DNA from: Roseibium sp.
GTDB lineage: Bacteria > Pseudomonadota > Alphaproteobacteria > Rhizobiales > Stappiaceae
Direction of reading: 5' to 3'
NCBI GenBank assembly: GCA_039986495.1
Contig: JBDWQP010000013.1
Coordinates: forward strand, 88,084 to 152,083
DNA: 64,000 nt
The stretch's first letter is position 1. Every line of letters starts with the position of its first letter. Both the position numbers and the translations under genes were made by a program. This document shows, one piece after another, positions 31,904-44,093 of this stretch. The notes beneath the pieces were generated by a model. The model had not been told where the DNA came from, did no database searches, and saw nothing but the letters and a program-made list of their open reading frames with translations.

Positions 31904-32881
31904 TTATTTCGTCGCTGCATCAAGCGGAGCAAGGTACCAGAAGTCCTCAATATTCAAGGACGATAGATCACCTTCCAGTTGGCCAGCATCCGAATACCAT
32001 TCGATATCCGCTGTCGCTGCCTTACGGCCGCCGCCATTCGGGTCATAAAGACCACCCGCAACTGCATCGCTGTAGAACTCATCCAGGTTGCCCAGAATTT
32101 CTGGCGGCAGCTGTCCGATAGGGCCATCAGGATCCGTTTCCCTGCTGATAACGGTCGGATCTTTCGCCATATCCTGCCAGACACTGACCAGAGCACTTAC
32201 AAAGATATCGACGTCTTTTTCGTTGCTCTTGATCCAGTCAAGATTGGCGAAAAGTGCTTCGTCACTTGCTTCAACTTCGAACATTGGCAACACATTGAAT
32301 TTGTCACCGGCGATCTTCATGACTTTGTTCTTGTTCGACAGATCGACGATGGTCGCGTCAGTCTGTCCAGCCATAAGCGCTGCAACCCGGTTCGATGAAC
32401 CTGGTACATAGGAGCGGTCGCCAAATTTTATGTTGAGCTTGTCTTCGATCACGTTTGCAATGGAGTCCGTGCCACCACCGCGTGAATGAAGCATGATCGG
32501 CTCACCATTCAGCTCTTCAAGAGTGCTGTATTTTTTGGAGGTCACCGGAAAGAATTTCAGCTTTGAAAGCTGGAAAACAATGCGGATAGGGGCTTTTGAG
32601 CGCTGCATCGCAGCATATGGCGTCCCGAACCCAATGTCCATTTGCCCGCTCAAGACAGCCTGAATCGCCAACTCTTCATCCGAGAACGCTGTCCATTCGT
32701 AATCCAGTCCGTTGGCTTTGGCGCGATCGAGAGCGACGAAAAACGCGGCAAGTTCATCCGACGGTGTTTCCGCCAAGGCTATTTTGATTTTACCGGCAGC
32801 GTCTGCTGTCCCGGCCATAAGTCCGATCGCCAGCGGAATGACCGCTACTGCCGCACCCAATCTGCGCAAAAGTGACTTCAT
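31904..32881 (-). CDS. NitT/TauT (SsuA/THI5-like) substrate-binding protein
   Basis: Signal peptide MKSLLRRLGAAVAV, AIQAVLSGQMDIG, RVAALMAGQTDATI; GGAGG RBS before 32881. Confidence 0.88.
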   Translation of the reverse strand: MKSLLRRLGAAVAVIPLAIGLMAGTADAAGKIKIALAETPSDELAAFFVALDRAKANGLDYEWTAFSDEELAIQAVLSGQMDIGFGTPYAAMQRSKAPIRIVFQLSKLKFFPVTSKKYSTLEELNGEPIMLHSRGGGTDSIANVIEDKLNIKFGDRSYVPGSSNRVAALMAGQTDATIVDLSNKNKVMKIAGDKFNVLPMFEVEASDEALFANLDWIKSNEKDVDIFVSALVSVWQDMAKDPTVISRETDPDGPIGQLPPEILGNLDEFYSDAVAGGLYDPNGGGRKAATADIEWYSDAGQLEGDLSSLNIEDFWYLAPLDAATK

Positions 32882-39684: not shown

Positions 39685-40187
39685 TGGCAAAATTCTTCGA
39701 AGAAATGGAAATCGGCGAGATCACCGAACTTGGGTCTCATAGCTTTACAGCAGAAGACATCATCGCGTTTGCGCAGAAATACGACCCGCAACCATTTCAC
39801 TTGAGTGAAGAAGCAGCAGCAGAGACGCACTTTGGCCGCCTGTGCGCCTCAGGCTGGCATACGGCATCAGCCTTCATGAAGCTGTTTGTAGCGACGTCAA
39901 AACGACAGCGAGAAGAGGCCCTGCAGATCGGAAAAACGCCTGCCCGATTTGGACCATCTCCGGGTTTTGAAAATCTGAAGTGGATCAAACCGGTCTTTGC
40001 CGGTGACACGTTGAGCTACCAGTGGGTGACTACCAGTACAACAGAAAGCCGCAGTCGCCCGGAATGGGGGCTGGTCCATTTTGATGTACTTGCCCGCAAT
40101 CAAGACGATATTCTGGTGTTTTCCTTCAAGGGAACGGTATTTGTGGAGCGGCGCAAGGCGCTGGCCGCCCCAACCAGTTCTATTTAG
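39681..40187 (+). CDS. MaoC family dehydratase (second, translationally coupled)
   Basis: YDPQPFHLS, CASGWHT, PVFAGD; ATGA overlap with the first maoC. Confidence 0.92.
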   Translation: MMAKFFEEMEIGEITELGSHSFTAEDIIAFAQKYDPQPFHLSEEAAAETHFGRLCASGWHTASAFMKLFVATSKRQREEALQIGKTPARFGPSPGFENLKWIKPVFAGDTLSYQWVTTSTTESRSRPEWGLVHFDVLARNQDDILVFSFKGTVFVERRKALAAPTSSI

Positions 40188-41206
40188 GTCGGCTTGCGAC
40201 CCGTCACCAGCATGGTCATGCCTGGTATCATGACCTTGGTCTCGACGTTTTCGAAACCTGCACCTTCCATCAAACCGGCCACATAATCGCTGGTGATGGA
40301 TTTGGCTTGCGGATTGAACGCTGTGTGCTGCAATTGCCAGAGCGCGGCAAGTTTTGGACCTTCCCGGTCTTCATCGACCATGAAGTCATGCACCATGAAG
40401 TTTCCACCCGGTTCCAGAACGTCCATTGCCTTGCGAACCAGTCCTGGAATCGCCGTTCCCGGTACGCCGGAAAAGAGATAGGACATCAGAACAGCACCGG
40501 CACTCTCCGGCCACGTATCCTTAAGGGCATTGCCGGGTTGATATCTTATGCGGTCCGACAGGTTTTCTTCCTCAATAAACTCCATGCCGACATTGGCAAC
40601 ATTGGGAAAATCGAGAATTGTGGAGCTCATTTGCGGATAGGCTTCACACAACGAAATCGAGAAAGCACCAGTCCCGCCACCAACATCAAGCAGTGTTTTC
40701 ACCTTTGACAGATCGACCATCCGGGCAAGCCCCCGACCAGGGCCCAGAGAACCCGCATGTTGGGACTTAGAATACAATCGCGCCTGCTCAGGATCGCTGA
40801 ACCATTCTTCATAGGACGCGACATTTTCTGGATCCAGATCATCCGTCAACGCCTCGTTGAGCTGCGTCAGGAACGGATACATCTGCTGATCAATCTGCAG
40901 CCTTAAATAATCGCCAAAATCATACTTCCGGCCTTTGACCAGAAAGGCTTCCGCCGCAGGGGAATTGGTGAACCCGTCACCTTCTTTGCGCACCAAACCC
41001 AGGCTGGTCAATGCGGTTAAAAGCGTGGTTGCTCGCTCACCATCCAGTGGGCATTTTTCGGCCACCTGATCTGGTGTTAAATATTTTTCAGATAAAACCG
41101 AAAACAAACCAACATGAAGTGCAGAAAAAAGAGCTTTCGAGCCCATAAATCCAAAAGCAATATCAGAAATTGACTCCGCCGTTTCAAGCGGAATTGCAGC
41201 AGACAT
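40184..41206 (-). CDS. dsyB: DsyB, MTHB S-methyltransferase of DMSP biosynthesis
   Basis: 340 aa class I methyltransferase (LLDVGGGTG). Long stretches match my recollection of Labrenzia DsyB: ISDIAFGFMGSKALFSALH, SPAAEAFLVKGRKYDFGDYLR, SQHAGSLGPGR, LMSYLFSGVPG, GPKLAALWQLQHTAFNP. The maoC/GNAT/bluB/apt/mtnP context matches the reported Labrenzia locus. Confidence 0.88.
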   Translation of the reverse strand: MSAAIPLETAESISDIAFGFMGSKALFSALHVGLFSVLSEKYLTPDQVAEKCPLDGERATTLLTALTSLGLVRKEGDGFTNSPAAEAFLVKGRKYDFGDYLRLQIDQQMYPFLTQLNEALTDDLDPENVASYEEWFSDPEQARLYSKSQHAGSLGPGRGLARMVDLSKVKTLLDVGGGTGAFSISLCEAYPQMSSTILDFPNVANVGMEFIEEENLSDRIRYQPGNALKDTWPESAGAVLMSYLFSGVPGTAIPGLVRKAMDVLEPGGNFMVHDFMVDEDREGPKLAALWQLQHTAFNPQAKSITSDYVAGLMEGAGFENVETKVMIPGMTMLVTGRKPT

Positions 41207-41287
41207 AAAATAACCTCCTCGGAGTATACTCCGTCAGTAAATGTGCAGCACCAAAATCAGCTTTTGGATACTCTGGTATTTTTCGCG

Positions 41288-41315
41288 ATTATAGGCATTG
41301 TGCACCGCAGCGCAA
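41288..41315 (-). promoter_or_regulatory. Predicted sigma70 promoter of dsyB
   Basis: Minus strand TTGCGC (41315-41310), N16, TATAAT (41293-41288). Confidence 0.65.
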
Positions 41316-41381
41316 CAGAACACTGTTGCGGAATTCGCAAAAGCAAAAACCGGCTAATATGCTAGCGCTCGTCAGGAGGGG

Positions 41382-41867
41382 TCAGATACTGAGCGCAAAC
41401 AGCACTTCGTCGTGGATTTCGATACCATAATCGCCTCGCAGCGGGATACCGGGTTTCAGCTCACGCTCGCGGTCGATAACACCCTGCCCGATCCGTTCCA
41501 GCCTGAATCCACGGCGCTGATAAAAGCGGAAAGCATCCAAATTGTCGTTGGATGTGCGAACGGTCAGACGGTCAATCCCGGTCGACTTGATTTCGTCTAT
41601 TGCAGCATCCAGAAGAAGACTCCCCACGCCGCCCCATCGATTGATGGAATCGAGCGTCAGAATTTCCCACTCATTTTCCCGTTTGATCAGGGTTACAAGC
41701 CCGACCAATTCATTGTTGGACCATGCAGTGTATCCCGGCAACCTGGATGCATCGATCATCTCACCGTCGATCAGGATATCGGGTGACGTCCAGCGCTGGA
41801 GCAATAACTTGAGAACATCGGGATGATCTTCGGCGGTTGTTGCACGGATCGTAACTGACATTGACAC
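41382..41867 (-). CDS. GNAT family acetyltransferase
   Basis: RWGGVGSLLL, TSNDNLDAFRFYQRRGF. Confidence 0.9.
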   Translation of the reverse strand: MSMSVTIRATTAEDHPDVLKLLLQRWTSPDILIDGEMIDASRLPGYTAWSNNELVGLVTLIKRENEWEILTLDSINRWGGVGSLLLDAAIDEIKSTGIDRLTVRTSNDNLDAFRFYQRRGFRLERIGQGVIDRERELKPGIPLRGDYGIEIHDEVLFALSI

Positions 41868-42536: not shown

Positions 42537-43085
42537 TCAATGTCCGGGGAATTCGACCAGAGTGCGCACAGGAACCTTGAGGTCTTCCAGTTTTTTGCGT
42601 CCGCCCAAATCTGGCAGATCAACAATGAAACAGGCCGCTTCGATATTAGCGCCCATGGATCTCAGCAGTTTGCAGGCAGCTTCGGCGGTGCCGCCTGTTG
42701 CGATCAAATCATCGACCACAATCACTCGATCGCCTGGCTGGATTGCATCCTTATGCATTTCCATTTCATCCAATCCGTATTCAAGAGAATACGCAATTCG
42801 AACAGTCTCGTAAGGCAACTTGCCCTTCTTCCGGATCGGAACAAAGCCAGCAGAAAGCTGATGAGCCACAGCGCCACCAAGAATAAAGCCGCGCGCTTCG
42901 ATACCAGCGATTTGGTCAACTTTTGACCCGGCCCAAGGCTGCACCAACGCATCGACAGCTCGACGAAACGCGCGCGCGTTGCCCAGGAGCGTGGTGATAT
43001 CGCGGAACAGAATGCCCTCTTTCGGGTAGTCCTTGATCGTGCGAATCGCGCTGATCAATTCATCCTGGATCGTCTGATCGACCAT
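42537..43085 (-). CDS. apt: Adenine phosphoribosyltransferase
   Basis: [37 protein letters not shown]. Confidence 0.97.
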
Positions 43086-43208
43086 TGGTTCATTTCCCTA
43101 AATACAATTGCACACAGTAAGTCCTACTGCGTTGCCCCGACCGCTATATATATCAATTTTAGCCAGTTGGTCGACGCAATTTCACGTAGTTTGAATATGC
43201 AGAACAGT

Positions 43209-44093
43209 TTAGTCAGGCTTGTTCAGAATCCGACCAGCGACAGCATCCAGTTTGGCGACAAGTACCGGATCGCGTTTGTCCGGTGCCGTCATCATCGCAA
43301 ACTCAAGTGCTGTATCTGATCCTGCAGGGCAGGATTGATGCTCCTTCGGCAGATCGCGTGCCACACGGGCAACAAGGCGCTGCGCGTTTTCAGCATTTTC
43401 ATGGAGAACCTTGATGATCGCCTGTATGTCGACCTCACCGTGATCTGGATGCCAGCTGTCATAGTCTGTGACCATAGCAACAGTCGCATAGCAGATCTCT
43501 GCTTCACGGGCGAGCTTGGCTTCCGGCATGTTGGTCATGCCGATCACGGCACATCCCCACGATCTGTAGAGTTCACTTTCGGCCAGGGAAGAGAACTGAG
43601 GACCTTCCATCGCCAAATAGGTACCGCCCTTGTGGCAAGTGAGACCTTCGGCTTCACCAGCGGCTGCGACAGCCTCTACAAGCTTGGGGCTGGTCGGTGT
43701 CGCCATGGAAACATGGGCAACACAGCCGGTGCCAAAGAAACTTTTCTCACGGGCGATCGTGCGATCAATGAACTGATCGACCAGAACAAAGGTCCCCGGA
43801 GCCAATTCCTCTTTCAAAGAACCGCATGCGGACACGGACAAAAGGTCCGTCACGCCGCAACGCTTCATCACATCGATGTTTGCGCGGTAGTTGATTGATG
43901 TCGGCGAATAGACATGACCACGGCCATGGCGCGGCAGAAATACAATTTTCAGACCATTGATCGTGCCAATCCTTACCTGATCGGACGGAGTGCCCCAAGG
44001 GCTCTCGACAGTAATCCATTCTGAATTCTCGAGGCCCGGCAGATCATAGATCCCTGACCCTCCGATTATTCCAAGAACTGCATCCGCCATCAA
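43209..44093 (-). CDS. mtnP: S-methyl-5'-thioadenosine phosphorylase
   Basis: GIIGGSG, LPRHGRGH, INYRANI, MEGPQFS, GMTNMPEAKLAREAEICY, TDYDSW. Confidence 0.95.
   Translation of the reverse strand: MMADAVLGIIGGSGIYDLPGLENSEWITVESPWGTPSDQVRIGTINGLKIVFLPRHGRGHVYSPTSINYRANIDVMKRCGVTDLLSVSACGSLKEELAPGTFVLVDQFIDRTIAREKSFFGTGCVAHVSMATPTSPKLVEAVAAAGEAEGLTCHKGGTYLAMEGPQFSSLAESELYRSWGCAVIGMTNMPEAKLAREAEICYATVAMVTDYDSWHPDHGEVDIQAIIKVLHENAENAQRLVARVARDLPKEHQSCPAGSDTALEFAMMTAPDKRDPVLVAKLDAVAGRILNKPD

Follow-up and report, generated by a model that had tools for sequence, protein, structure and literature searches.

A conserved PhaR-type box in the promoter of the DMSP-synthesis gene dsyB of Roseibium: a predicted link between carbon storage and DMSP

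Dimethylsulfoniopropionate (DMSP) is a nitrogen-free osmolyte, and its synthesis by bacteria, for which dsyB is the key gene, feeds both the marine sulfur cycle and DMS production. PhaR is a repressor that senses the granules of polyhydroxybutyrate (PHB) in which carbon is stored. Transcription of dsyB responds to nitrogen and to salinity (PMC10989797), and this raises the question of which regulator acts at its promoter. The initial annotation of the DNA studied here knew of no described dsyB regulator, and our literature searches (on the dsyB promoter, its transcription and its regulation, on dsyB with polyhydroxybutyrate, and on PhaR with dimethylsulfoniopropionate) likewise returned neither such a regulator nor a link between PhaR and DMSP. 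That annotation proposed a PhaR-type box inside the dsyB promoter of a Roseibium sp. genome. We follow the proposal through the window, i.e. the whole 64-kb stretch analysed, through the 4.9-Mb genome, and through the dsyB loci of relatives.

The dsyB promoter and its PhaR-type boxes

The gene downstream of the proposed promoter (Table 1) has full-length likeness to biochemically and structurally characterised DsyB: its product matches the solved Nisaea DsyB structures, PDB 7wdq and 7wdw, with an E-value of 4e-124 across residues 7–339, and carries the Pfam domains Methyltransf_2 and Dimerisation (O-methyltransferase dimerisation domain). On the ORF map dsyB is monocistronic, with a convergent neighbouring gene.

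Table 1. Features of the dsyB locus in the window.
Feature	Position	Strand	Basis and remarks
dsyB (SAM-dependent MTHB S-methyltransferase of DMSP synthesis)	40184..41206	minus	PDB match and Pfam domains
Predicted dsyB 5' UTR, two hairpins	41207..41283	minus	start (~41283-41281) predicted from -10 position
Shine-Dalgarno GAGGAGG of dsyB	41214-41220	minus	within predicted 5' UTR
-10 hexamer TATAAT	41288..41293	minus	6/6
PhaR-type box 2, TGCGGTGCACAA, inside promoter spacer	41298..41309	minus	12/12 to TGCRNYGCASMA
Weaker box 1, TGCGCTGCG	41306..41314	minus	fits S. meliloti core YGCRNYGCR; overlaps box 2 and -35
-35-like hexamer TTGCGC (relatives: TTTGCA/TTGCAT)	41310..41315	minus	3/6 vs TTGACA
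8-bp perfect inverted repeat CGCAACAG-tgtt-CTGTTGCG	41311..41330	minus	arms 41330-41323 / 41318-41311, 4-nt loop
GNAT acetyltransferase gene, upstream of and co-oriented with dsyB	41382..41867	minus	Pfam Acetyltransf_1

Read on the minus strand from 41330 to 41288, the upstream DNA is cgcaacag-tgtt-ctgTTGCGC-TGCGGTGCACAA-tgcc-TATAAT, and the dsyB ORF begins 82 nt downstream of this stretch. The promoter letters first described here, TTGCGC-TGCGGTGCACAAtgcc-TATAAT, are thus correct and stand ~100 nt ahead of a genuine dsyB. The 16-nt spacer between the two hexamers is filled by the box, within a promoter-like block, conserved in relatives, of the form TTGC..-16/17-TATAAT. A simple consensus promoter scanner left the dsyB promoter uncalled, because TTGCGC agrees with TTGACA at just three of six positions.

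The PhaR consensus given in the annotation, TGCRNYGCASMA, agrees letter for letter with the one that Nishihata et al. 2018 (PMC6201568) derived from the DNase-I footprints TGCGACGCACAA, TGCGTCGCACAA and TGCGCTGCACAA in Bradyrhizobium diazoefficiens; its reported 12/12 fit to the dsyB box (41309-41298) was confirmed. A 13-mer form of the box, TGCGGTGCACAAT, extends to 41297, and box 1 is offset from box 2 by 5 nt upstream. The flanks of the dsyB box in this genome are G+C-rich (TTGCGC and CAATGC), and the A+T-rich arms of the extended Sinorhizobium meliloti motif, WNWDDN-core-NHHWNW, are absent. Such arms are newly reported for PhaR sites of S. meliloti (PMC12542648) and are not part of the B. 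diazoefficiens definition; given G+C-rich flanks in place of these arms, the affinity of PhaR for the dsyB site in this genome may be lower.

The box class across the genome and the regulon it marks

By number alone the box is unremarkable: the window holds two matches to TGCRNYGCASMA against 1.35 expected, a count not above chance. The earlier expectation of ~0.5 was therefore too low, while the accompanying argument that position rather than count is what matters is one we share. The second match, TGCATCGCAGCA at 32604-32615 (+), lies within an ORF by our own calls and is probably due to chance. Genome-wide there are 78 matches, 43 inside ORFs and 35 in the intergenic 11.5% of the genome (the fraction that our own ORF calls leave), and for the narrower TGCRNYGCACAA 11 of 15 are intergenic. 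A weight matrix was also derived, independently of dsyB, from phasin promoters: those of 26 other Roseibium species supplied its 40 unique boxes. Its 13-nt core finds 34 sites of at least 17 bits in the genome, of which 21 are intergenic (binomial P 4e-12). The PhaR-type box class in this genome is thus strongly intergenic and behaves as a real cis-element. The dsyB box scores 19.6 bits on this core and ranks 14 of 34; just four sites inside ORFs in the whole genome score as high or higher. On the full 21-nt matrix the dsyB site scores 4.4 bits in this genome vs 13–18 bits in relatives, because its flanks here are G+C-rich, and this is the main weakness at the level of sequence.

The genome encodes a single phaR, identified at equivalog level (TIGR01848, 149 bits; cutoff 109). 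The gene is single-copy in all 37 Roseibium genomes, so that a phylogenetic profile of phaR against the box is uninformative within the genus. Several phasin genes are present. Two of their promoters carry two TGC-N3-GCA boxes each, the pair in the phasin promoter on contig C8 lying on either side of a TTGACA -35 hexamer; on the opposite strand, two of these phasin boxes read TGCGCYGCACAATAA and belong to the 13-mer class of the dsyB box. The phasin boxes are conserved across 26 other Roseibium species. Further boxes lie upstream of phaZ (TIGR01849, 657 bits) and of ppa, which encodes inorganic pyrophosphatase and where a PhaR motif is also found in S. meliloti (PMC12542648). Among other genes preceded by intergenic boxes are a pyruvate carboxylase-like and a fadB-like gene, and genes for an acyl-CoA synthetase and a patatin-like lipase.

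On contig C8, PhaR-type boxes lie upstream of a gene for a nasT-like ANTAR response regulator (C8:50905-50919; L144:206-220) and upstream of a gene for an NrtA-like nitrate/sulfonate binding protein (C8:52743-52771; L144:2044-2072). The latter region holds the best matrix match in the genome (28.6 bits), with a sigma-54-like TGGCACgcttcCTGCT ~120 nt downstream. These sites raise the possibility that PhaR controls nitrate assimilation as well, in keeping with a role in balancing carbon and nitrogen. In the 400 nt upstream of glnK (contig C7:128582) there is a box with one mismatch, CGCAGCGCACAAT (13.1 bits); variants starting with CGC are listed among the PhaR sites of Bradyrhizobium. A separate observation is a cluster of three PhaR-type boxes within 95 nt on C8 (C8:415985-416079; L143:386-480), with no ORF called downstream. 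An sRNA like MmgR (cf. mmgR of S. meliloti) at this triple box was considered and found unsupported, the Rfam search giving a partial ar14 match elsewhere in the piece only.

Conservation of the promoter block within and beyond Roseibium

DsyB loci were gathered from 27 genomes (the window's own, 23 other Roseibium and two other genera) and from 80 named genomes, the latter in a search that yielded roughly 400 dsyB loci. Among the Roseibium relatives DsyB is 72–91% identical in the main clade and 55–56% in a divergent clade found in three genomes. In 16 Roseibium species the dsyB promoter has the form TTGC-N-Y-TGC-R-N-Y-GCACAAT-NN-Y-TATAAT, placed 97–110 nt ahead of the dsyB start; R. aggregatum IAM 12614, R. 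marinum, R. sediminicola and Stappia sp. BW2 belong to this set. The GNAT gene is the upstream neighbour in some relatives only, and the block is kept at this distance with or without it.

Averaged over the 16 species, the 28-nt block is 89% identical, vs 30–35% for the 40 nt on each side and 50% for third codon positions of dsyB. The flanks are scrambled. In the 12-mer box, variation is limited to the R, N and Y columns, and the two TGC-N3-GC boxes differ at their central N3, with four letters seen at the middle N and two each at R and Y. Elsewhere the block varies at two positions following CAAT and at the Y that precedes TATAAT. That TGC and GCA are invariant among the 16 partly reflects how this subset was chosen, a limit that applies neither to the invariance of CAAT nor to the R/N/Y pattern. 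The TTGC of the -35-like hexamer is invariant in the same species, and so is TATAAT where the spacer box is perfect; elsewhere in the genus the -10 hexamer is TATGAT or TATAGT. A TGCAYTGCR element over the -35, the counterpart of box 1, occurs in 22 of 26 aligned Roseibium dsyB promoters, with a 1-nt variant in one more and no such element in three.

The boxes of individual relatives lead back to known PhaR sites. That of R. aggregatum IAM 12614 is TGCGTCGCACAA and, at the same position, that of R. marinum and several others is TGCGCTGCACAA; both are letter-identical to the footprinted phaP1 and phaP4 sites of B. diazoefficiens (PMC6201568). Four species, R. algae, R. denhamense, R. aquae and R. 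polysiphoniae, lack the spacer box and have one 5 nt upstream instead, over the -35; in R. algae this is a perfect TGCAATGCAGCA with a 12/12 fit. Going by these alignments, the 5-nt shift looks like the turnover typical of functional binding sites. The box is missing from two Roseibium dsyB promoters. A comparison with the dsyB promoters of other Roseibium, Labrenzia and Stappia had been named at the outset as the way to check the box; it came out positive, with the wobble at R, N and Y that is expected of a PhaR site. We conclude that the block is very probably a conserved functional cis-element.

Beyond Roseibium, the region upstream of dsyB contains strong boxes in a Minwuia MAG (L066:~1425-1440), in Thalassobaculum fulvum (L082:~1340) and in an unclassified alphaproteobacterial MAG (L084:~1440-1455), in the last of these again within the spacer (TTAAAG-18-CATAAT). 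The box is absent at the dsyB of Breoghania, at that of Stappia sediminis and at most distant dsyB loci. Upstream regions outside the genus yield four matches in 13.5 kb vs one in 192 kb of a mostly coding control; with average intergenic DNA as the reference, only a modest excess would be left. The three boxes may represent an independent recurrence of the dsyB wiring.

The inverted repeat that the initial annotation placed over the -35 has a different status. It is present and perfect, but its sequence is unconserved in the dsyB promoters of relatives, and the window contains 31 8-bp inverted repeats vs ~8 expected. Transcribed, it would form an RNA hairpin of -11.9 kcal/mol with no T-run after it. 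At this position the nearest relative (91% identical) has a stronger, unrelated hairpin (-21.4 kcal/mol), which fits an RNA hairpin that ends or insulates the GNAT transcript. The repeat is probably such a hairpin, after or at the end of the upstream GNAT transcript, and unrelated to the operator.

A predicted PhaR switch, its alternatives and the dsyB leader

The mechanism that we propose takes the 28 nt at 41315-41288 as a sigma-70-type dsyB promoter, with an operator for PhaR (AniA) in the spacer and a weaker second box over the -35. When PHB is low, free PhaR would bind TGCGGTGCACAA between -35 and -10, exclude RNA polymerase and repress dsyB. Under carbon excess and nitrogen limitation PHB granules would form and sequester PhaR; with PhaR titrated away the promoter would be free, and dsyB, hence DMSP synthesis, would go up. 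In L. aggregata dsyB is reportedly upregulated on nitrogen starvation, as described by Curson et al. in 2017. Both dsyB transcription and DMSP rise on nitrogen starvation in N. denitrificans (PMC10989797). The titration of PhaR by PHB granules, on which the initial annotation built its proposal, is the accepted model and has been confirmed for S. meliloti, where sequestration relieves repression (PMC12542648). It is from this sequestration that derepression of dsyB under carbon excess and nitrogen limitation would follow. The salinity induction of dsyB is left unexplained by the mechanism.

The PhaR reading of the box draws support from the published motif, from the equivalog phaR, from the same box at phasin, phaZ and ppa promoters of the genome, and from conservation in relatives. 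On these grounds PhaR is likely to be the ligand of the element. For its direction of action we rely on position. The PhaR sites verified by footprinting or EMSA at phaP1 and phaP4 (PMC6201568) and at S. meliloti phaZ (PMC12542648) lie at or beside the -35 of repressed genes; known PhaR repression sites flank or overlap the -35 or sit just downstream of it (PMC6201568, PMC12542648). By analogy, a box that fills the -35/-10 spacer would be in a repressor position, and the evidence leans towards repression of dsyB by PhaR with relief by PHB. Taken whole, a PhaR operator in the dsyB promoter with repression relieved by PHB granules is a reasonably probable account of the locus.

Known PhaR systems provide close parallels. 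With the phaP1/phaP4 operators of B. diazoefficiens (PMC6201568), which repress, the dsyB site shares the 12-mer class TGCRNYGCASMA and, in the predicted promoter, a position beside or overlapping the -35. It differs from them in its target, a methyltransferase of DMSP synthesis rather than phasins, and in having one strong spacer box and an overlapping weak box where B. diazoefficiens has two separated boxes flanking the -35. The AniA/PhaR regulon of S. meliloti (PMC12542648) shares the palindromic core YGCRNYGCR and, at phaZ, a single site just downstream of the -35; it is pleiotropic, with ppa and genes of central carbon metabolism among its targets, and the present genome also has boxes at ppa and at the pyruvate carboxylase gene. 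In contrast to the S. meliloti sites, the dsyB site of this genome lacks A+T-rich arms, and the S. meliloti regulon as reported includes no gene for osmolyte or sulfur metabolism (PMC12542648). Turning to a third system, the dsyB site again has counterparts at the level of the core. In Rhodobacter sphaeroides and Paracoccus denitrificans, PhaR binds TGC-N3-GCA or 'TGC-rich' operators at phaP and phaR, and binding to PHB releases it. The TGC-N3-GCA core, TGC repeats spaced by 5 nt (TGCGC-TGCGG-TGCAC at dsyB) and the proposed titration by PHB are common to these operators and to dsyB; to our knowledge they control PHB genes only.

How else might the block be explained? A functionless chance match, for which one could cite the count in the window and the 43 genomic matches inside ORFs, is highly improbable: the box stands in a conserved island amid scrambled DNA across at least 16 species, and the four in-ORF sites that reach its core score are few for a genome of this size. 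Equally improbable is that the inverted repeat is the operator of a separate dsyB regulator. Its perfection, its overlap with the -35 and the over-representation of such repeats in the window speak for such an operator, but the repeat sequence is lost even in the 91%-identical relative, where an unrelated hairpin stands in its place. A more substantial alternative, though we regard it as improbable, is that the block is a real regulatory promoter whose conservation is owed to another protein or to a constraint intrinsic to the promoter, the likeness to PhaR sites being coincidental. All 28 nt are conserved, including TTGC, CAAT and TATAAT, beyond the bases that PhaR specifies, and the dsyB flanks lack the A+T-rich arms of the phasin and S. 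meliloti sites. Because the entire block from -35 to -10 is conserved, part of the constraint would indeed come from the promoter itself. Against another protein stand the variable columns, which coincide exactly with R, N and Y in the PhaR consensus, and the box that is shifted by 5 nt yet kept in four species; a palindrome in an alternative register, ATTGnGCnGCnCAAT, is broken in R. aggregatum, where TGC-N3-GCA is perfect, and boxes of the 13-mer class to which the dsyB site belongs also stand at phaP and phaZ of the genome.

Specific candidates for such another system fared no better. Control by NtrC and sigma-54 was rejected: the NtrC-type TGCAC-N7-GTGCA and sigma-54 patterns are absent from the dsyB promoter, there is no upstream GG-N10-GC, and a GGTGCA half-site is found in this genome only. 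Conversely, four of five canonical Ntr promoters checked (glnB-glnA and three GS paralogues) are without TGC-N3-GCA boxes, the fifth being the near-match of glnK. A promoter of RpoH or EcfG type was also rejected, the -10 context not being kept as CC/CGTT in relatives. Finally, PhaR might bind the box and yet modulate dsyB only slightly or positively, with other systems chiefly responsible for how the gene responds to nitrogen and salinity. PhaR also activates some genes in B. diazoefficiens (PMC6201568) and S. meliloti (PMC12542648), salinity induction has no obvious link to PHB, and the site here may be weak, given its score on the full matrix. We nevertheless consider this reading unlikely, if worth keeping in mind, as the spacer site would occupy a repressor position and the known PhaR sites there belong to the repressed phaP1, phaP4 and phaZ.

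Under the PHB-relieved repression that we prefer, dsyB would be a new target of a known regulator acting through a known type of operator, and the conserved site offers a concrete and testable mechanism for the response of dsyB to nitrogen limitation. If this is true, DMSP output is tied to carbon storage, and the PhaR regulon extends to osmolyte and sulfur metabolism. We are evenly divided on the broadest form of the proposal, that PhaR would be the first transcriptional regulator identified for DMSP synthesis in bacteria, a carbon/nitrogen-balance switch that senses PHB and turns on dsyB and apparently nitrate-assimilation genes, with a wiring that arose or was kept independently in Roseibium, Minwuia, Thalassobaculum and the unclassified MAG. 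R. aggregatum IAM 12614 has the box, and the published dsyB mutant of L. aggregata (PMC10989797) marks this species as genetically tractable.

Transcription of dsyB would start at ~41281-41283, judging from the spacing to the -10. Among sequencing runs, the four that contain the dsyB locus are all DNA assemblies, and four RNA runs under the same species label contain no reads on it. One RNA-seq run (X23) contains the dsyB of R. aggregatum (L036:1683-2536), with the 3' end of the gene joined to a GGATCCGAATTCGAGCTC-like polylinker; because of this vector-like junction we take the run as heterologous expression of the cloned gene, and it is therefore useless for mapping the native start. The predicted 5' UTR has a fold energy of -18.2 kcal/mol (z = -1.8), and Rfam returned only noise on the 5' UTR and promoter. 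A hairpin, CGGAGTA/TACTCCG, lies immediately 5' of or overlapping the Shine-Dalgarno sequence [window 41207-41283 (-)], and many relatives (L033-L051) have a CTCAG/CTGAG hairpin in their dsyB 5' UTRs that differs from it in letters and register. RNAalifold on 11 dsyB 5' UTRs gave no consensus structure, the alignment being poor and the hairpins in different registers. The Shine-Dalgarno hairpin may be an element of translational control.

Further upstream on the same strand, at 42537-44093 (-), the window contains ORFs that we named by eye as adenine phosphoribosyltransferase-like and methylthioadenosine-phosphorylase-like; a nitroreductase gene and then the GNAT gene lie between them and dsyB. 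The closeness of a methionine-salvage gene to the methionine-consuming DMSP pathway may be more than coincidence.
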